This document shows, piece after piece, positions 1 through 51,003 of a stretch of 64,000 nt of DNA (position 1 is its first letter; the number at the start of each line of letters is the position of its first letter). Origin of the DNA: a virus; IMG/VR virus record IMGVR_UViG_3300025093_000002, positions 1-64,000 of that record, one strand, 5' to 3'. The position numbers and the translations under genes are program-made. The notes beneath the pieces are model-generated. The model saw nothing but the letters and a program-made list of their open reading frames with translations, had not been told where the DNA came from and ran no database searches.

Positions 1-87
1 GAGATGAGCGACCTTTTCATCATCATCGAAGCGTTCGGCGCAAAGCATGGCGTCACGTTTCACGACCGTCAGGAGCGAGCCGCATGA
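1..87 (+). CDS. ninB: NinB recombination protein, 3' end only (truncated by window)
   Basis: Identical to the 3' end of 41233..41631. Confidence 0.8.
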   Translation, partial: EMSDLFIIIEAFGAKHGVTFHDRQERAA

Positions 88-278
88 GCCTCCCCCTCAC
101 CGCCCCTAGCTCTGTCCGCCGCTCTAAAAAGCGTTGCGCGCAGTATGTCGAGACACACGAGCAGCTTCGGCGCGAAGTCGAGATTGCCCTCATGCGCCAG
201 TCCGATGGCCTTGGAGCATGGCTTGCCGATGCCCTTGAGGCTGAGATGGACTGCTTTGATGTGGAGGCGGCGGCATGA
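84..278 (+). CDS. Small hypothetical phage protein (near-identical copy at 41628..41816)
   Basis: ATGA coupling at both ends; the indel between copies keeps the frame. Confidence 0.65.
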   Translation: MSLPLTAPSSVRRSKKRCAQYVETHEQLRREVEIALMRQSDGLGAWLADALEAEMDCFDVEAAA

Positions 279-460
279 GCCATTTTGCCACTGCACTGGC
301 GATCATCGGTGTTGCATTCGCGGTCGCCTACTGTTCCGTTGAGGTGAACCGCAGCGGCCATGAAGCGAGGAAATTCGAAGCTGAGGCTTGCGAGCGCGCT
401 GGAGGGCGCATGGTCCGCAATTGGGGCCAGCTCGTCTGCGAATACCCAGGGGCGCGCTGA
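275..460 (+). CDS. Small membrane-anchored hypothetical protein
   Basis: Hydrophobic N-terminus; translationally coupled. Confidence 0.55.
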   Translation: MSHFATALAIIGVAFAVAYCSVEVNRSGHEARKFEAEACERAGGRMVRNWGQLVCEYPGAR

Positions 461-1154: not shown

Positions 1155-1951
1155 TGGACAGCTTAGAACAGGCGCGGGAAGCGCTGATTTGGTATGAGAA
1201 CAACGCGGCGGGCTGTCGCCTCATTCACAGCGGCGGCGATGCGCATCGCAACGCTCTTGCGGCAGACGGTGGAACTCGCGCCCGCGAAGCCCTCGCCGCC
1301 CTCTCCCGTCCGGTGGAGGGGGTGAAGGGGGAGCCGCGCGCATTTCTCGTGACGGGCATCAACGAAAGACATGGCCGTATCATCGACGCGCGCAAGTATG
1401 ATCCCCGCCGCGATGATTTCTGGATGCCCGGCCAGAAAGAAAGACACACGGTCGAACCGCTGTTCCTCACCGCCCCGCCCGTCGCTGATAGCGAAGCCCC
1501 CTCCACTCCCGTAGATGGGGCGGGGGCGGAACCTGTCGCTTACGAGATATTCCGTAATGGCGTCTTTGAGGAAGTGTCTCGCATCGCCTTAAACGATGCC
1601 GACAAGCGCGCTGGCTACACGCAGAGGCCGCTCTACGCCGCGCCCCTCGCCAATCCAGAAGCCGAAGCACGGCTGCGGGAGCGGGTGGTGGAGTTGGAGC
1701 GCGAACAGAACTATCCGCTATTCCGCCAGCGGGCAAAAGAGCTTGTCGAACACTGGCAATCGCTCGACGAACCCGCCGAAGCCCGTCTCGCACAAGCCGA
1801 GCGGGGGCCAGCGGTGACGGAGGCCGTGGTTGAGACGGTCGGTGAGGAACTGTTCTCGCGCGGTCATACGAAAATCACAAAGCAGGATGTGCGAGCCGCC
1901 CTCGAAGCCGCCCTCCATCCCCAATCGGCGGCAGGGGAGGAAGGGAAATGA
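1154..1951 (+). CDS. Mosaic (Ea22-style modular) hypothetical early protein (counterpart 42483..43235)
   Basis: Several short conserved blocks separated by unrelated segments. Confidence 0.7.
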   Translation: MDSLEQAREALIWYENNAAGCRLIHSGGDAHRNALAADGGTRAREALAALSRPVEGVKGEPRAFLVTGINERHGRIIDARKYDPRRDDFWMPGQKERHTVEPLFLTAPPVADSEAPSTPVDGAGAEPVAYEIFRNGVFEEVSRIALNDADKRAGYTQRPLYAAPLANPEAEARLRERVVELEREQNYPLFRQRAKELVEHWQSLDEPAEARLAQAERGPAVTEAVVETVGEELFSRGHTKITKQDVRAALEAALHPQSAAGEEGK

Positions 1952-2142
1952 CCCCAAACCAGTGGCAAACATTAGAAGCGCTGAACAACTGCACCGCTCC
2001 TTGGGACGCGAAACATCCCAGCAACCGGAATGTTTTGGCGGCGCTTGGGAGGTTGGGGCTTGCCGAAAAACAACTTGGTTACCCCGTAGGTTGGGTCATC
2101 ACCGCCGCTGGCCGTCGCGCCCTTCAGGAGCGCCAGCCATGA
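1948..2142 (+). CDS. Small hypothetical protein, possible winged helix
   Basis: MTPNQWQTLEAL...LGRLGLAE...WVITAAGRRAL resembles wHTH; coupled to both neighbours. Confidence 0.55.
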   Translation: MTPNQWQTLEALNNCTAPWDAKHPSNRNVLAALGRLGLAEKQLGYPVGWVITAAGRRALQERQP

Positions 2143-2444
2143 AGACGGCAAGGGAGATAATCGCACGGGCCTACGACCGCGAGCAGGCGGCGCAGATGGG
2201 CGAACCGGACCCATGGCAGGACGGCACCGACCACCCCGAATGGGAAGGCAGTCTCGGATGCGCAGACGTGGCTATAGCCGCTCTCGCTGCCGAGGGGTTC
2301 AGCATCGTGGAGACAGGACTTGTCGAGCAAGCTTTCCGCGATGGCGTTGCCTACGGCACTGTCTGCGACGTAACCGATATCGATAAGGCATGGGAAACGT
2401 CTGCCGTTCGCGCCCGCTCTATAAGGAAGGGGAAGACAGAATGA
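2139..2444 (+). CDS. Mosaic hypothetical early protein (counterpart 43453..43761)
   Basis: Shared MKTAREIIA and IAALAAEGFSIVETG blocks; start at ATG 2139. Confidence 0.7.
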   Translation: MKTAREIIARAYDREQAAQMGEPDPWQDGTDHPEWEGSLGCADVAIAALAAEGFSIVETGLVEQAFRDGVAYGTVCDVTDIDKAWETSAVRARSIRKGKTE

Positions 2445-2767
2445 GCCGCGTCTTCACACCTGCGACTCTTGCACAGCGCTGGGAATGCTCCGACAAGCAT
2501 GTTCGCAATCTAATCATGGCCGGCGAATTGCCAGCGTTCCGCGTTGGCGGCAAATTGCTCCGCATCAAAGGCGCGGACGTGGAGGACTACGAATGCCGGA
2601 ATGGCGTCTCACTCGACTCGACGGAGATTTCTGCGTCACCTGGGACGATCCCAGCATCAAGGCCGGAAGGCGACGTTATCGACTTCACACCTCAGACCCA
2701 AAAGAAGCAGCCGCGCGCGCCGCGTCTCGATACGCAGCTTTCACGCGCCCGACTGGCAAGACGGTAG
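2441..2767 (+). CDS. xis: Excisionase (HTH_17/MerR-like)
   Basis: FTPATLAQRWECSDKHVRNLIMAGELPAFRVGGKLLRI; immediately upstream of int. Confidence 0.8.
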   Translation: MSRVFTPATLAQRWECSDKHVRNLIMAGELPAFRVGGKLLRIKGADVEDYECRNGVSLDSTEISASPGTIPASRPEGDVIDFTPQTQKKQPRAPRLDTQLSRARLARR

Positions 2768-3582
2768 CCGAGATATGGAAAGGCTACGTCGCGGACATGG
2801 AAGGCCGCGCCGTGGTCGGCACGATGAAGCACACATGGAAGGCGCTTCAGTTCCGGTTCGGGGGCTTGAACGGTGATGAGGTGTCGATTGCCGATTGCCG
2901 GGCACACACTGAGCAGCGGCGGCTTGACGGCATCAAGGATGGAACGATCCATACCGAACTAGGCCACCTGCGCATGGTTCTGCTATGGGCCGAAAAGCAC
3001 CGTCTCATTGACCGAGCGCCAGCAATCGAACGGCCGGCGAAACCAGAACCGAAGCACGATTACCTGACACGCGAGGAGGCCAGGCGATTAGTCGATGCTT
3101 CGAAGGCCGCGCATGTGGCACTCGCCATTGAACTGATGCTGGCGACCGGCGCGCGTAATGAGGCTGCGCTGACGCTGACATGGGATCGCGTAGACATGGA
3201 GCGGCGCATCATCCAGCTTCGAAACCCGTTCGATAGGGCGAAGCGGAAAGGGCGCGCAACCGTGCCGATGAATGACAAGATCCACACGGCTATGGGAAAG
3301 GCCAAGAGGGGGGCTTTGACGCCATTCGTGGTCGAGTGGGCCGGAAGACCGGTCAAGTCGATCAAGCGCGGCCTGAAGGCGGCGGGCGCCGAGATAGGAC
3401 GACCAGACGTGTCGCCCCACATGCTGCGTCATTCGGCGGCTGTATGGCTGGCCGAAGACGGGCATTCGATGAATGAGATTTCGCAGTACCTTGGTCATGA
3501 CGACGTGAAGACGACCACGCGCGTCTATGCCAGGTTCTCGCCAACGCACCTTCGGAAGCTCGCTGACAGCCTCAATTTCTGA
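2593..3582 (+). CDS. int: Tyrosine integrase 1
   Basis: TGARNEA, HMLRH, LGHDD and terminal Y catalytic motifs; GGAGG RBS at 2581 supports ATG 2593. Confidence 0.92.
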   Translation: MPEWRLTRLDGDFCVTWDDPSIKAGRRRYRLHTSDPKEAAARAASRYAAFTRPTGKTVAEIWKGYVADMEGRAVVGTMKHTWKALQFRFGGLNGDEVSIADCRAHTEQRRLDGIKDGTIHTELGHLRMVLLWAEKHRLIDRAPAIERPAKPEPKHDYLTREEARRLVDASKAAHVALAIELMLATGARNEAALTLTWDRVDMERRIIQLRNPFDRAKRKGRATVPMNDKIHTAMGKAKRGALTPFVVEWAGRPVKSIKRGLKAAGAEIGRPDVSPHMLRHSAAVWLAEDGHSMNEISQYLGHDDVKTTTRVYARFSPTHLRKLADSLNF

Positions 3583-3586
3583 GGCT

Positions 3587-3806
3587 CAGGTTCGGGTAAA
3601 CCTAGAGAGAAATATGTAAACACCAGCTAAGTGCTTGAAAGGATGGTGGGCGTGACAGGGATTGAACCTGTGACCCCTACGATGTCAACATTGCGCCCCT
3701 ACCGGAAACCCGCGAAACCCCGGCAAATGGGCACTACGCCATGGCCCTGTGGAGAACGATGTTCCGCTTCTGTCCGGTTTGCAGGTTTGGTCGAACCTAG
3801 AGGGAA
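3587..3806. promoter_or_regulatory. Putative integrase arm-type sites AGGTT-N6-AACCTAGAG at 3587-3611 and 3782-3806, flanking the core
   Basis: 20/25 identical dyad-containing repeats on both sides of the tRNA core. Confidence 0.6.
3644..3689 (-). other. attP core: 3' half of tRNA-Val(GAC), from the anticodon loop to CCA
   Basis: Reverse complement GTTGACATCGTAGGGGTCACAGGTTCAATCCCTGTCACGCCCACCA contains anticodon loop, T-arm and CCA; the 5' half of the tRNA is absent. Confidence 0.88.
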
Positions 3807-3816
3807 CTACGCACGC

Positions 3817-3966
3817 ATGCACATTAGACGCATCGAAACGAAAGGCACCCTCGTCCTCATCGCTGCCCTTATCGTAGCTCTATGGGCAGTGGGAGAGTGG
3901 GTGCTATCGTGGGGGCCTTGGCTTCTGAGTATGGCCGCGACGTTCGGCTTCATCGATACGCTCTAG
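3817..3966 (+). CDS. Small single-TM membrane protein (homolog 45418..45513)
   Basis: GTLVLIAALIVALWAVGEWVL is conserved at DNA and protein level in both phages. Confidence 0.55.
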   Translation: MHIRRIETKGTLVLIAALIVALWAVGEWVLSWGPWLLSMAATFGFIDTL

Positions 3967-4215
3967 AAGCTCATCCAGCCTGTGATTGATGCCCGAGGTG
4001 TTCTTGTCCGTCAGCGCATCCGCAATGCGCTTCACTTCTGCAATGAGACGATCCATCTGTTCCCGCTCGCCAAACCCCAAACCAATCCCCGCCAGGACGG
4101 CATCATTCGCTTTGGCTGGTGGCGTCGTCTGCCGAGACAGATATTTACCGGCCCCCGCCAGCAACAGGATAGCCCCGTAGATCGCGGCAATCCACAATTC
4201 AGGTGCAATGGTCAT
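3904..4215 (-). CDS. Lysis-cassette membrane protein (TM plus coiled coil)
   Basis: N-terminal TM; last gene of the lysis operon. Confidence 0.6.
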   Translation of the reverse strand: MTIAPELWIAAIYGAILLLAGAGKYLSRQTTPPAKANDAVLAGIGLGFGEREQMDRLIAEVKRIADALTDKNTSGINHRLDELLERIDEAERRGHTQKPRPPR

Positions 4216-4660
4216 TCACGGCCACCCGCTTTTTATGGGTTTTGTCCGATGCGCCAGCTTCGCCCATCGCGCGGATGACGTTGTACGAGTCGAGGAACAG
4301 AAGGACGGGATAAACGGCGAGGCCCGTTGAGCCAGTGCCGGCCTGCGCCATCCCCAATGTGATCTGGAACCAGAAGAAGCAGGCCACGAAGGCAAAGAAA
4401 GCCCGCCAGTGCGGAGAGCGCCGCCAAGCCCCGTTGATGCATAGAACGATGAACCTTAGCCCGCCTGCGATAAGGCATAGCCACCCCCATGTCTCGGGGT
4501 CTGCCATCTGGGCAAGAACCTTGTAGGACGCGCCTTGAAACACGCCGGGGTTCAGCCAGATCACGACGGCCCAATTGATGAGAACAAGTGCCAACGCCCA
4601 TTCGGACGCTCGCCCCGGAAATGTCTCTCGGAGCGAGTGCTTTATGTGGGCGAGGATCAT
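4199..4660 (-). CDS. Lysis-cassette multi-TM membrane protein
   Basis: About four hydrophobic segments; coupled to the holin. Confidence 0.65.
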   Translation of the reverse strand: MILAHIKHSLRETFPGRASEWALALVLINWAVVIWLNPGVFQGASYKVLAQMADPETWGWLCLIAGGLRFIVLCINGAWRRSPHWRAFFAFVACFFWFQITLGMAQAGTGSTGLAVYPVLLFLDSYNVIRAMGEAGASDKTHKKRVAVNDHCT

Positions 4661-4900: not shown

Positions 4901-5563
4901 TTATCCTTTCGAGAACAGGTTGCGGAAGAAAGATGCGAGCGCAGCCCAGAAGCCCTGCGCAGGGGCAGGAGCAGGTTCAGGGCGCGGTGTGGGTGTTGGC
5001 GTGGGAAGCGGGCCAGGAACGGGCGGTGCAGCCTTCATGAGCGCCAGAACGTCAACCCGCTTGCCCCGGCTCCAAAGGACGACGCCCTTCGTGTTCGCAG
5101 GGTAGAGGGTGGCGAAACCGCCGCTGGAATACTTGCCACTGAAAAACAGGCCGCGCTCTTTCTCGCGGCGCGGGATGATTTCCTTCGGCTTCGACCAGAA
5201 CATGAACGCCTTGCGCGCCCCGGCCATATCGCCCGCGTTGAACTTCTTTACCCACGTTGCATCATCGATGCCCCCAGTGTTGAAGTCGAAGGACACAGCC
5301 GCGTCGAACTGCTCTTGCGTGAGCGGGCGGGTAAACGCCTTGCGGACGCGGGCTTCGAACTTGGCGATATCGCGCCGGAAAATTTCCATGATTTCCGCCA
5401 TGGAGTATTCGCCACGCTTCAACGCGGGATTCGGAAAGCCGGCAGAGGCAGTATGCCCAATGCCAACCGTCCAGACGCCAACGCTGTCCTTGTAAGGCGC
5501 ATTGACGATGCCTTCGTGGCTCGCGATCTCCACGAGCCCCTTGTCGCTGACCTTTTGGGCCAT
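4901..5563 (-). CDS. Endolysin, GH24 lysozyme, with Pro-rich linker and C-terminal amphipathic helix
   Basis: HEG...YKDSVGVWTVGIGHT catalytic motif; QFDAAVSFDFNTG. Confidence 0.9.
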   Translation of the reverse strand: MAQKVSDKGLVEIASHEGIVNAPYKDSVGVWTVGIGHTASAGFPNPALKRGEYSMAEIMEIFRRDIAKFEARVRKAFTRPLTQEQFDAAVSFDFNTGGIDDATWVKKFNAGDMAGARKAFMFWSKPKEIIPRREKERGLFFSGKYSSGGFATLYPANTKGVVLWSRGKRVDVLALMKAAPPVPGPLPTPTPTPRPEPAPAPAQGFWAALASFFRNLFSKG

Positions 5564-5761
5564 CGGTATTCCTTTTTCAGTTGTGGGGGAGGTTGCACGC
5601 GGAGGGGTTGCGTGCTTGAAGGGAGTGCGCCATCAAGGCGCGCGCCAAGTTTTAGGCGCTTATGAAGAAGAGCGGCTTCTATGCTTGGGTATTTGGCAGC
5701 CGTCGTTATCGGCGGGATCGGGATCGGGCTTATATTGCTCGACGTGGCGGGCTACTAAGCC

Positions 5762-41232: not shown

Positions 41233-41631
41233 ATGGGCCGCGCGCTTCTCGTCATCAACTCAACCGCCGAACGCCAGAAGGCCGCTGCTTGGGTGCAGCA
41301 AGCCCCCTGGGGAACGCGCATTGAATACAAGGGGCCGAAGCGCACCCTGCCCCAGAACGACCGCCTGTGGGCCATGCTGACGGACGTAGCCACGCAACTG
41401 ACGTGGCACGGCGTTCGCCTCACGCCCGACGACTGGAAGCTCATGTTCCTCGATGGCTTGAAGCGCGAACTGCGCATGGTGCCGAACATCGAGGGCAACG
41501 GGTTCGTGAACTTGGGACGCTCTTCGTCCGACTTGGACAAACAGGAGATGAGCGACCTTTTCATCATCATCGAAGCGTTCGGCGCAAAGCATGGCGTCAC
41601 GTTTCACGACCGTCAGGAGCGAGCCGCATGA
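41233..41631 (+). CDS. ninB: NinB recombination protein
   Basis: KRTLPQNDRLWAMLTDVA...DWK...LGRSSS...EMSDL...AFGA. Confidence 0.85.
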   Translation: MGRALLVINSTAERQKAAAWVQQAPWGTRIEYKGPKRTLPQNDRLWAMLTDVATQLTWHGVRLTPDDWKLMFLDGLKRELRMVPNIEGNGFVNLGRSSSDLDKQEMSDLFIIIEAFGAKHGVTFHDRQERAA

Positions 41632-41820
41632 GCCTCCCCCTCACCGCCCCTAGCTCTGTCCGCCGCTCTAAGAGGCGGTGCGCGCAGTATGTCGAGACAC
41701 ACGAGCAGCTTCGACGCGAAGTCGAGATTATGCGCCAGTCCGATGGCCTTGGAGCATGGCTTGCCGATGCCCTTGAGGCTGAGATGGGCTGCTTTGATGC
41801 GGAGGCGGCGGCATGAGCCA
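41545..41820 (+). repeat. Direct repeat copy 2 of 1-282
   Basis: Direct sequence comparison. Confidence 0.95.
41628..41816 (+). CDS. Small hypothetical protein (copy of 84..278)
   Basis: Near-identical to 84..278. Confidence 0.65.
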   Translation: MSLPLTAPSSVRRSKRRCAQYVETHEQLRREVEIMRQSDGLGAWLADALEAEMGCFDAEAAA

Positions 41821-47953: not shown

Positions 47954-48357
47954 TTGCGCCCCCGAATTGCCGACGCAATCGCAGTGACGCTTTGCCCAAC
48001 TACCTGAACGCCGAAGAAGGAAAGAAGGATTGCCCCCTGCCAATCATCGAAGGGAGCCGGGAATGCCGGTATGCGCCAGCCAAGCTTGAAGCACGTGTCG
48101 AGCGTGACCAGCAGGAGATGAAACGAGAAGCAGCCGGCGATGATGAAGGTGACCAGCCGCATTTCCCAGAAACCCGCCGTTGCCATGCGGATTTCCGTTG
48201 CCTGCTTTCTCGCCTCTATCTTCGCCTCGATGTCCTTGGCGACCAGATCCGCGACAAGCCGTTGCCCGTCGTTCCTGGCCGATAGCCGCGCCTCGTATGC
48301 CTTGGTGAGTTGCCCGACCAGATCACCTGTGATCCATCGGATTATCGCGCCCCACAC
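47950..48357 (-). CDS. Holin-like membrane protein
   Basis: Amphipathic N-terminus plus two TMs, inside the lysis cassette. Confidence 0.6.
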   Translation of the reverse strand: MWGAIIRWITGDLVGQLTKAYEARLSARNDGQRLVADLVAKDIEAKIEARKQATEIRMATAGFWEMRLVTFIIAGCFSFHLLLVTLDTCFKLGWRIPAFPAPFDDWQGAILLSFFGVQVVGQSVTAIASAIRGRK

Positions 48358-48360
48358 GGT

Positions 48361-48531
48361 TCAGACGCTTTCGTTCCGAACGCCATAGACGCCCGCAGCA
48401 GTGAGGGCCGAAACGACCAGTTCGAGCACGACCGTATCGAGGCCGAGGATTTCGATTTCCAGATAGCGCAGTGCCATCAGGGCAGAGACGCCCGCCAGTG
48501 CAGCCACGAATTTCCGATATGGAGCGAGCAT
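48361..48531 (-). CDS. Putative 2-TM holin, 56 aa (not in ORF track)
   Basis: MLAPYRKFVAALAGVSALMAL...SALTAAGVYGVRNESV; TGATG-coupled to the endolysin. Confidence 0.65.
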   Translation of the reverse strand: MLAPYRKFVAALAGVSALMALRYLEIEILGLDTVVLELVVSALTAAGVYGVRNESV

Positions 48532-49121
48532 CAGCGTTCCTTTCCGAACAGCTTGAGGATTGCGGCGATGATTGAGGCCCAGAAACCGCCACGCGGGGCT
48601 GCTGGAGCGGGTTTCGGGGTTGGACGGGCTGGCGTGTCCACGCCGTAGCCTTCGGCCTTCAGGAGGGCGTCGTAGCGCTTGGCGATGTCGGCAATCTCGG
48701 CCGCCTTGTCCTTGCCGTTGATGATGCGGCGCGCGTTGACGAAATCGGACTTCTGAAGCGTCATGTAGTCGGACAGCTTCTTGCCGGTGAACCAGCCGTC
48801 CCGAGAGCCGACAACGAGGATTTCCGCCGCATACTTCGGCTCAAGCAGCTTCTTCGGGTTGTTGACGAAATCGACGCCCAACTCGCGGGTGGCGCGCTTG
48901 TAGTTCTCCAGCCAGGTTAGCTGGGCGTAGCCCATCCCGACGTAGGGGTAGTATTTCTTCGACCGCAGATACTTTTCGCCGCCATACTCGCGAACCGGCT
49001 TCATGGTTCGGGCGGTTTCCCACGCGGTTGTAGCCAAAACATATGCGGCTTGGTTTCTTAGAAGGCCATGCTTCTTGCAGGCGTCAATAATCAGCCGAGT
49101 GTCGCCAATCTCTAGGTTCAA
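48531..49121 (-). CDS. Endolysin, GH19/chitinase-like, TTG start, first 31 codons recoded
   Basis: AYVLAT-AWET, YVGMGYAQLTW-ENY, ARRIING; AGGAG RBS 8 nt upstream of TTG 49121. Confidence 0.85.
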   Translation of the reverse strand: MNLEIGDTRLIIDACKKHGLLRNQAAYVLATTAWETARTMKPVREYGGEKYLRSKKYYPYVGMGYAQLTWLENYKRATRELGVDFVNNPKKLLEPKYAAEILVVGSRDGWFTGKKLSDYMTLQKSDFVNARRIINGKDKAAEIADIAKRYDALLKAEGYGVDTPARPTPKPAPAAPRGGFWASIIAAILKLFGKER

Positions 49122-49171
49122 AAATCCGTCTCCTATTGATGCTGTCGCCCAACTCTGATAAGCATCTTCGG

Positions 49172-49663
49172 ATGAAGACGATAGAAGAGCGCCTGTGGGC
49201 GAAAGTTGAAGTGCGAGGTGAGGACGAATGCTGGCCTTGGTTAGGCTACAAGCATGCCAATAGTGGACATGGACAAATTGGTCGGGGCCGTCGAGGCGAA
49301 GGCCAAACCTACGTCCACATCGTTTCATGGGAGGTAGCGAACGGTGCCAAGGTTCCGGAAGGCATGTGCGTTTGCCATAGTTGCGACCACCCGCCATGCG
49401 TGAACCCGAAGCATCTGTTTCTTGGTTCGAAAGCGGACAACACGGCAGATATGGTGAAGAAGCGGCGTCATAAGTTTGGGCAAGACGCGCCTTGGGCTAG
49501 GCTTACCGATAGTGACATCCTTGCTATCCACCATCGTTACGAACAGAAGGCGACCCAGCAGGAAATCGCCCGCGAATTTAAGGTCTCTCGGTCCCTTGTG
49601 GGACTAATCCTTCAAGGGAAGCGCTGGCCACATTTAGCAGTCGCGAGGACGTATGCCGCCTGA
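49172..49663 (+). CDS. HNH homing endonuclease (HNH_3/I-HmuI-like) with C-terminal HTH
   Basis: ECWPWLG...VCHSCDHPPCVNPKHLFLGSKADNTADM; TQQEIAREFKVSRSLV. Confidence 0.9.
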   Translation: MKTIEERLWAKVEVRGEDECWPWLGYKHANSGHGQIGRGRRGEGQTYVHIVSWEVANGAKVPEGMCVCHSCDHPPCVNPKHLFLGSKADNTADMVKKRRHKFGQDAPWARLTDSDILAIHHRYEQKATQQEIAREFKVSRSLVGLILQGKRWPHLAVARTYAA

Positions 49664-49731
49664 TTGCGCAGGAGCCCATGCCGCTTGCAGCATTCGATGA
49701 TCAGGCGTGTGTCGCCGAGCGCCAGGTTCAT
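49612..49731 (-). pseudogene. Orphaned ancestral 5' fragment of the endolysin (31-32 codons, then reads into the insert and stops)
   Basis: MNLALGDTRLIIECCKRHGLLRNQAAYVLAT; keeps the leader shared with the phage 1 endolysin. Confidence 0.85.
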
Positions 49732-49827
49732 AGGCACTTCCTTTTTCAGTTGTGGGAGAAGCGCGTCAGCTTTTGGGTTGTCGTTAAAAGAATGACGGCC
49801 TAAGAGTTCTCCAAACGGAGAATTCAG

Positions 49828-51003
49828 ATGAAGAAGCTCGCAGCGGTGTTCGCCACCGTTATCGCCATTGTTGCTCTCGCGGGCTTCGCGAAACCTCAAA
49901 TCATCAATGCCGGCGACTTTCTGGTTCGCCAGCCGCTTCTCAGCATCCGCGCCGAAATGGCAGCGATTACATCCGAGGTTTCGACCCTTCGAGCCGAGAT
50001 GGCGGTTGCATTGGCCCCACCTCCGCCACCCGCCCCTATGCAAGTGCAAGAGGTTGCCGAACCGGCCGTGAGCGATGGGTGGGAACTGGTCACTGATGAC
50101 GCCCCATTCCGCCCCCGCGATGGGTCTTTCGTCGCGTCCTTCAAGGGCTACCTTTGGCTTGGCAATGGCTGGCCGGGTTCTTCCGACAACATGCCGACTT
50201 CAATCTGGCGTTCCCGCGACGGCAAGGATTGGGAGCGTGTCGTTGACAATGCCCCGTGGAAGGGCCGGCACATCGGCAACTTTGTCGTCCTCAATGACCG
50301 CATGTACATGTACGGCGGCGACAACATGACCGACGTCTGGTCATCCGCCGATGGGATTAACTGGCAGCTCGAAATAGCAGAGGCACCGTGGGGCAAGCGC
50401 TATAACCCCTACATGGGCGCGTTCAACGGCAAGCTCTGGCTGATGGGCGGGCAGAACGAACACTGGACCGGCGCCTATAATGATGTCTGGTCTTCTGTGG
50501 ATGGCAAGACGTGGGTGCGCGAGGTTGAGAACGCGCCGTGGCCGCGTCGTAGCCTAGTCTCCGGGTTCGCGGTTCACGACGGGCACATGTGGGTTATGGG
50601 CGGCGGAAGGAAGATACCCGACCCGCGCTGCAATGGATGCGGCCAGACCATCTATGACCTGAACGATGTCTGGAAATCCGCAAACGGCGTCGATTGGGAA
50701 CTCGTCATTCCCCGCGCTGAATGGGCACCCCGAACGCATATGAGTGTGGTCGGCTACGACGGCAATCTTATCGTGACCGATGGCTCTGTCGGTACGCAGG
50801 CGGGCATGTCGAGCGAAGCATGGTTCTCGAAAGACGGTATCGAGTGGCACCCTATCGGCGGCATCCCTGACCAGAAGTTCAGCCCCCGCCATGCATCAAC
50901 GCTGGTTGAGCACGACGGGACGCTGTTTATGGTGACGGGCTATCTTCGCAACGATGTCTGGAAGCTGAACCCGGAAGCTCTTACCGTGCCTCCAACGCAG
51001 TGA
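49828..51003 (+). CDS. Exported Asp-box/Kelch beta-propeller moron
   Basis: Signal peptide, poly-Pro linker, repeated W-x-S-x-D-G-x-x-W and GG motifs. Confidence 0.75.
   Translation: MKKLAAVFATVIAIVALAGFAKPQIINAGDFLVRQPLLSIRAEMAAITSEVSTLRAEMAVALAPPPPPAPMQVQEVAEPAVSDGWELVTDDAPFRPRDGSFVASFKGYLWLGNGWPGSSDNMPTSIWRSRDGKDWERVVDNAPWKGRHIGNFVVLNDRMYMYGGDNMTDVWSSADGINWQLEIAEAPWGKRYNPYMGAFNGKLWLMGGQNEHWTGAYNDVWSSVDGKTWVREVENAPWPRRSLVSGFAVHDGHMWVMGGGRKIPDPRCNGCGQTIYDLNDVWKSANGVDWELVIPRAEWAPRTHMSVVGYDGNLIVTDGSVGTQAGMSSEAWFSKDGIEWHPIGGIPDQKFSPRHASTLVEHDGTLFMVTGYLRNDVWKLNPEALTVPPTQ

Follow-up and report, generated by a model that had tools for sequence, protein, structure and literature searches.

Homing endonuclease genes are usually said to spare their host by residing in introns, in inteins or between genes. 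A different strategy, in which the nuclease gene travels with a substitute for the gene end that it displaces, has precedent at gene 3′ ends in the mORFs of fungal mitochondria and the WHO elements of yeasts (PMC3630166, PMC7282813). The fungal mitochondrial mORFs form gene hybrids in atp6 of Allomyces macrogynus, in atp6, atp9, cox2 and nad3 of Glomus sp., in atp9 of Rhizopus and in cox2 of Mortierella (PMC3630166). The WHO elements home into the FBA1 gene of Torulaspora and Lachancea yeasts, form a class apart from introns and inteins, and consist of an endonuclease gene together with a part of the host gene in a form that resists cleavage (PMC7282813; bioRxiv 10.64898/2026.08.13.744650). 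Among phages, the free-standing homing endonucleases of T4-like members (such as SegF, SegG and MobE) spread by “intronless homing”, that is, by double-strand-break repair with co-conversion of protective flanking polymorphisms (PMC2988022; PMC10055350). Similar in this respect are the HEG-islands of ICP1-like phages, which include small genes that are fragments of essential cargo and in which unrelated classes of homing endonuclease genes can share a location (PMC10055350).

Here we describe an endolysin locus that is likely to be a gene-end-replacing homing cassette, in which a putative nuclease is carried together with a foreign, presumably cut-resistant gene end and no intron. It lies in the window, by which we mean the whole 64,000-nt stretch that was analysed (positions 1-64,000 of the 92,088-bp IMG/VR record IMGVR_UViG_3300025093_000002). 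As in the mORFs, an endonuclease ORF sits within coding sequence beside a foreign duplicate of the displaced gene end, and the native remnant stays in place (PMC3630166). The layout that defines mORFs and WHO elements is also seen in the identities to relatives, for the displaced copy matches them (90-93%) and the in-frame copy is foreign (65%), compared with 91-98% and 64-81% for the native and inserted pieces of mORFs (PMC3630166). As in the WHO elements, integration has replaced part of a gene and left old fragments behind; different WHO elements compete for one site, and here different nucleases share a site (PMC7282813; bioRxiv 10.64898/2026.08.13.744650). The differences are equally clear. 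The mORFs replace the 3′ end of genes in organelle genomes and encode LAGLIDADG or GIY-YIG enzymes (PMC3630166), and in the WHO elements the 3′ half of a nuclear gene is exchanged and the endonucleases are LAGLIDADG zinc-finger proteins derived from inteins (PMC7282813). The phage cassette, in contrast, replaces the 5′ end (codons 1-33, with the ribosome-binding site and the start), and its HNH_3 enzyme is encoded antisense, with a stop codon borrowed from host DNA; 3′ duplication, the trait absent here, was seen at two other loci, L270 and L298. Because the 5′ end is replaced, the cassette must bring its own ribosome-binding site and start codon. Thus, what is new relative to the known elements is the 5′ end, the antisense nuclease and the phage setting. 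Allele-specific cleavage has been demonstrated for WHO6 (PMC7282813; bioRxiv 10.64898/2026.08.13.744650), whereas cleavage by the enzyme described here is a prediction from sequence. With the T4-like and ICP1-like cases the locus has in common that the nuclease gene is free-standing and phage-borne. The classical T4-like cases, however, occupy intergenic positions or divide one gene into two functional parts (Aeh1 nrdA, T4 gene 60/39), and the descriptions of the T4-like and ICP1-like elements contain no replacement gene end inside coding sequence with empty sites defined to the base pair. In the literature on phages we found no description of this layout beyond one remark in PMC10055350.

Table 1. 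Features of the interrupted endolysin locus, in positions of the window.
Feature	Position	Strand	Basis
Native endolysin leader and ribosome-binding site, upstream of the stranded old start	49732..49764	-	Aligns to L127/L128 upstream of the intact endolysin
Old (native) endolysin codons 1-32, stranded	49636..49731	-	90-93% nucleotide identity to L127/L128
Inserted cassette, 613 bp, in place of native codon 33 (TTC)	49023..49635		Alignment to empty-site alleles
HNH_3 endonuclease gene, 163 aa, antisense to the endolysin	49172..49663	+	PF13392
Spacer with the new ribosome-binding site for the replacement start	49122..49171	-	Read from the sequence
Foreign codons 1-33 of the replacement, starting with TTG and fused in frame to the native part	49023..49121	-	65% nucleotide identity to L127/L128
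Native endolysin codons 34-196 and stop	48531..49022	-	91-94% nucleotide identity to L127/L128

The features of the locus are listed in Table 1. On the minus strand, the old start (ATG 49731) follows a conserved leader and opens a residual ORF of 39 aa that runs into the insert and stops at 49612, and the complete endolysin (196 aa) is read from TTG 49121. Between them lies the cargo of the cassette: the antisense HNH_3 gene, an AGGAG/TTG start and foreign endolysin codons 1-33. Alignment with uninterrupted alleles shows the HNH_3 gene, the ribosome-binding site and the foreign codons as one 613-bp unit placed after endolysin codon 32. To judge from the same alignments, the working endolysin gene is a hybrid of a foreign start and the native remainder, with the native start stranded upstream. 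For annotation, this means that the endolysin truly starts at TTG 49121 rather than at the ATG that follows the conserved leader. An earlier, sequence-only reading of the window had placed an insert of about 610 bp at about 49029-49638. The insert itself is real, but both edges had to be moved, to 49023-49635 (613 bp), for the native sequence extends to the end of codon 32 (49636) and the foreign sequence to the end of codon 33 (49023). The AGGAG that the same reading had assigned to the replacement start at TTG 49121 was located at 49130-49134, 8 nt upstream of that codon. The diverged duplicate of the endolysin start that it had described was recovered as a direct repeat (49030-49120 versus 49640-49730), 71% identical at a spacing of 610 nt. 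Less can be said for the proposed TTGATG-N17-TAAGCA promoter of the HNH gene, which is weak (TAAGCA agrees with TATAAT at 2 of 6 positions); a scan of 48300-50100 for sigma-70-like consensus detected no promoter-like site, and the sole terminator-like site in the scanned region is on the plus strand within the endolysin gene. The GC content of the cassette is 0.49-0.55; the record as a whole has 0.61, and flanking stretches have about 0.6.

The uninterrupted allele expected in relatives was found in two related phage contigs, L127 and L128, and in three metagenomes besides (X2, X5 and X3). The 90% cluster of the endolysin comprises four proteins (P0001, P0123, P0124 and P0125) in which an old-type start is fused directly to the rest of the enzyme; L127 and L128, contigs that encode members of this cluster, carry the uninterrupted allele with the junction exactly as predicted. 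In contigs of runs X2 and X5, four letters, which restore Ala-Phe, separate 49022 from 49637, and an X3 contig has a similar empty joint, from 49019 to 49636. The site is therefore a precise presence/absence polymorphism, empty in L127, L128, P0123 and P0124. Identity to L127/L128 changes abruptly at both edges of the insert. The old fragment with its leader is 90-93% identical to them through codon 32 (49636) and about 30% identical thereafter, and the working gene is 65% identical at the nucleotide level over codons 1-33 and 91-94% identical from codon 34 (49022) on, with the two relatives themselves 92% identical to each other over codons 34-175. The maximum-chi-square breakpoint falls at nt 99 of the gene, between codons 33 and 34 (Fisher p 2.9e-15), and the foreign DNA is therefore 49023-49635, that is, 613 bp with one codon replaced. 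The earlier reading had named the lack of a break near 49029 as evidence against itself; a sharp identity break was found at 49022/49023. Replacement of the whole endolysin gene by a foreign one was considered and rejected, because identity returns to 91-94% after the breakpoint. Among the INPHARED phages, neither the locus nor the HNH gene has a close relative.

The replacement start encodes nearly the same peptide as the old one in a very different spelling. Recounting gave exactly the figures first reported: 26 of 31 residues are identical, 17 of the 25 shared codons differ synonymously and 12 of the last 13 codons before the junction differ, with the new copy AT-richer as claimed (GC 0.47 versus 0.62). 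GC at third codon positions (GC3) is 0.52 in the new copy and 0.81 in the old copy, about 0.8 in the rest of the endolysin and 0.58 in the HNH gene. Synonymous sites are saturated in replacement codons 1-33 (pS 0.81-0.82, dN 0.15-0.2), and the direct comparison of the old and new copies gives similar values (pS 0.81, dN 0.15). The old fragment shows no excess decay: compared with relatives, it and the working part of the gene have equally low dN/dS. The description of the new start as recoded was right about the diverged spelling and not about intent, as nothing points to deliberate recoding and the copy looks like a natural allele of lower GC. Because its low GC3 matches that of the HNH gene, the replacement start suggests an allele of a lower-GC donor phage that has travelled, and is still linked, with the nuclease. 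No closer donor of the replacement start was present among about 330 fetched loci.

The plus-strand ORF of the cassette (49172-49663) matches PF13392 (HNH_3) with an E of 3e-9 and 36.8 bits versus a cut-off of 24.8, and its PHROG matches are endonucleases (phrog_1872/phrog_59). The protein keeps all 24 columns that are invariant among 14 homologues, including the catalytic and zinc residues. Residue 73, in the Cys-Asp-Asn motif, is His, and more than 90% of the aligned homologues have Asn at this position; because His replaces a nearly invariant Asn, activity of the enzyme is not to be assumed. Matches of the C-terminus to helix-turn-helix families (Sigma70_r4, HTH_38 and HTH_7) are weak, all of them under the curated cut-offs, and the structure model (mean pLDDT 84) has a C-terminal domain that is confidently helical. 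The top fold matches of the model in Foldseek, both weak, were I-PpoI (1evw/1a74, E ~0.03) and I-HmuI (1u3e, E 0.13); no Foldseek match reached E 0.001, and a sequence search of the PDB gave no significant match to any solved structure. The layout of the model appears similar to that of I-HmuI, a His-Me finger followed by a helix-turn-helix DNA-binding tail, but I-HmuI and I-PpoI are intron-encoded and the HNH gene described here is free-standing. As noted from the sequence at the outset, the last codons and the stop of the HNH gene come from the antisense of the old endolysin fragment: residues 156-163 and the TGA lie on native endolysin codons 24-32. Scans of IMG/VR with the HNH protein and with an alignment of its closest relatives returned matches of at most 48% identity, and 401 genomes of the order of a related prophage host contained 4 distant HNH matches, none beside an endolysin.

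The interrupted enzyme is predicted to be a GH19-like endolysin. It matches PHROG endolysins with an E of 5e-31, scores 18.4 bits against PF00182 (GH19), below the cut-off of 25.5, and has weak matches in the PDB to GH19 chitinases and a phage endolysin (E 5e-4 to 2e-3). Its relative in contig L147 reaches 27.5 bits against PF00182, above the cut-off. A conserved Trp-Glu-Thr motif is located at the junction, in the native remainder. From general knowledge of GH19 enzymes, the Glu of the conserved (His/Trp)-Glu-Thr motif is the probable catalytic residue, and the cassette adjoins its codon.

The expectation that other nuclease genes would be found at duplicated gene starts was borne out at this very site, for related as well as unrelated nucleases. 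Among the closest homologues of the HNH protein, seven (52-62% identity, in a 163-aa and a ~225-aa form) end in Ala-(Arg/Ser)-Thr-stop, exactly the sequence that antisense reading of the conserved Tyr-Val-Leu-Ala codons yields in this frame. A search for short proteins retrieved truncated endolysin starts, of which P0253, P0255 and P0258 lose homology after Tyr-Val-Leu-Ala, P0257 leaves it after Leu-Ala-Thr-Thr and P0256 after Ala-Tyr-His. An equal length of their longest contigs (62,056) hints at a link between P0255 and P0018. Two other candidates, P0250 and P0251, were discarded as read-end artefacts because the Ile-Gly-Arg-Ala-His-Val in which they end is translated Illumina adapter. When the read-on tail of P0253 is treated as the opposite strand of the C-terminus of the HNH protein P0129, 28 of 28 positions are compatible (median 0.30 for other HNH tails), and the tail of P0258 is antisense-compatible with the HNH protein P0138 at 22 of 27 positions. 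Further, two uninterrupted endolysins, P0056 and P0029, start with exactly the sequence of the P0253 fragment. These same-site relatives are known from proteins, and protein-level antisense compatibility points to related HNH genes (P0129 and P0138-like) that overlap truncated endolysin starts (P0253 and P0258) antisense at this site. Both the short and the long HNH_3 forms are thus placed, by their predicted overlaps, antisense at endolysin codons 30-32.

An unrelated nuclease occupies nearly the same position in L147. This contig (37% GC) contains an old start (5-118), an endonuclease VII-like ORF (108-566) and a complete, diverged endolysin (556-1200). The nuclease is in sense orientation, matches phrog_3322 (E 5e-34) and is unrelated to the HNH enzyme. 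It starts at an ATG inside the host His-Glu codons, and its stop codon shares bases with the start of the new endolysin, so that the three ORFs overlap as if translationally coupled. The junction, at about codon 35, is ~8 nt from that of the window, and an endonuclease VII-like insertion at about the same codon is probably present in the phage of P0256 too. Both replacement copies, in the window and in L147, read Leu-Ala-Thr-Thr, and the old copies read Leu-Ala-Thr-Ala. We see an even chance that, in GH19-type endolysins of phages with Hyphomicrobiales-like hosts, the codons near the catalytic Glu act as a homing hot spot, where at least two unrelated nuclease families built 5′-end-replacing cassettes independently. 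In such a hot spot the old start would be more than debris. It would serve as the left homology arm of the element and supply the antisense HNH gene with its stop codon; in elements of the L147 type it would supply the nuclease with its start codon (the ATG in the His-Glu codons) and a leader for translational coupling. If the hot-spot reading is true, a third class of homing elements, neither introns nor inteins, would extend from mitochondria and yeast nuclei to phages as a third realm, and these would be the first elements of that class with 5′ replacement.

The 92,088-bp “direct terminal repeat” record from which the window was taken is made of two related collinear phage genomes (~1-41544 and ~41545-92088) fused via common sequence. 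The shared sequence is found at window 1-282 versus 41545-41820 and at the record ends (1-99 versus 91990-92088), and the terminal repeat of the record is a segment shared by the two phages and no true genome end.

With a 92-kb record that fuses two related genomes, the layout of the endolysin locus could in principle be an artefact of merging the two phages through their shared sequence. We rejected this explanation, which is scarcely credible, because an independent Logan contig, 25,950 nt long, agrees with the window at every base of 48400-50000 and a 229-nt contig from a separate study (X3, a soil metagenome) crosses the right junction of the occupied allele (48965-49193); moreover, the reading frames are coherent over both junctions. 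It is also very improbable that the native start is the real start and that the insert is a self-splicing intron or an intein, although some Staphylococcus phage endolysin genes are interrupted by HNH-bearing group I introns. Rfam returned no intron family even at E up to 10, and the antisense ORF and the second gene start nearly fill the 613 bp. An intein is excluded because the two copies are 610 nt apart and hence out of frame. Furthermore, the replacement copy has its own ribosome-binding site and a start that aligns to the starts of homologues. No signature of an intron or intein was found in these analyses, in agreement with the splicing-free arrangement first proposed.

The remaining alternatives accept the insert but deny that it homes. 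One regards the HNH protein as an ordinary accessory nuclease, linked for example to packaging, and the duplicated start as a product of mosaic recombination between lysis cassettes. The abundance of HNH_3 genes in phages (1,202 phage records match that of the window) fits such a view, as does the mosaic region, in which L127 and L128 differ in endolysin 3′ tails and upstream genes. Yet close relatives lack an HNH gene at this locus, the gene does not adjoin a terminase and the foreign sequence stops exactly at the duplication boundary within coding sequence, and we consider this origin quite improbable. The other alternative, which we judge unlikely, is a one-off scar of illegitimate recombination that captured a foreign HNH gene and a neighbouring endolysin start once, with the HNH protein inactive or used otherwise and the layout accidental. 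The first cassette must indeed stem from a non-homologous join at the HNH 3′ end, because the HNH gene lost its own stop and borrows that of the host DNA. The Asn-to-His change at a nearly invariant position is also consistent with a scar. So is the narrow distribution of the exact cassette, seen only in the source sample, in the window's own phage, and in the one 229-nt X3 contig; a search of IMG/VR with a junction-specific DNA pattern gave no match. An accidental scar is, however, difficult to reconcile with the recurrence of the architecture at the site, involving short and long HNH genes as well as an unrelated nuclease read in the opposite direction, with an HNH ORF that is intact and with cassette edges that match the empty-site junction to the base.

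We therefore return to the homing cassette as the preferred reading. Its putative nuclease would cut or nick uninterrupted alleles at about codons 30-35 in a co-infecting relative, and repair would copy the cassette, with the old fragment and leader (~128 nt shared with L127/L128) as the left homology and endolysin codon 34 onward as the right arm. The diverged spelling of the replacement would destroy the recognition site and thereby protect the donor, a protection that is predicted from the 18 bases 5′ of the right junction, 10 of which are not those of the native site. The same divergence would prevent a repair in which the broken left end pairs with the replacement copy and the nuclease is skipped, and would also guard against deletion of the nuclease between the direct repeats. 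The endolysin mRNA probably begins at the native leader and would read through the antisense HNH gene.

Seen in this way, the locus would be a phage example, resolved to the base pair, of a third route by which a homing endonuclease gene can spare its host, in which a spare and differently spelled gene end is carried along. The natural empty-site alleles make the locus directly testable. Cassettes of this type could explain why phage genomes contain short orphan ORFs that duplicate gene starts, why mosaicism within conserved phage genes can be abrupt and local, and why host DNA encodes the ends of some HNH proteins. In phage engineering, they could mark sites where a nuclease may exclude the allele of a co-infecting relative.

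The surroundings of the locus vary among the phages compared. The endolysin 3′ tail differs between L127 and L128, and so do the upstream genes. The endolysin of the other phage in the record (window 4901-5563, minus strand) has a different catalytic part from the GH19-like enzyme. The earlier reading had pointed out that this gene has a 19-nt leader in common with the interrupted endolysin, and we found it at 5569-5587. The endolysin of the other phage and that of L128 (5001-5585, P0125) have in common the 19-nt leader and a C-terminal tail, Gly-Phe-Trp ... Asn-Leu-Phe-Ser-Lys-Gly, and the GH19-like enzyme of the window has a tail other than that of these two. Both ends of the lysis genes look mosaic. 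Divergent from the endolysin leader, the window encodes a 391-aa protein (49828-51003, plus strand) with an N-terminal hydrophobic segment and matches to Kelch repeats; the DNA at this position in L127 and L128 differs from that of the window.

Screening 159 HNH loci by tblastx of one flank against the other gave noisy results, and L270 and L298 were the only loci inspected from it. In L270 (2677-3707), an HNH_3 gene (2788-3471, plus strand) lies antisense between a DUF7427 gene (3468-3707, minus strand) and a diverged partial duplicate (2677-2775, minus strand) of approximately the last 33 codons of that gene, which is a 3′-end version of the layout. In L298 (1257-4380), the gene for the terminase large subunit (1257-3008) is followed by an HNH_3 gene (2899-3570), an HNH_repeat/ROS-MucR ORF (3548-4198) and a 61-aa ORF (4195-4380) that duplicates the terminase C-terminus, with 76% identity over 37 residues.
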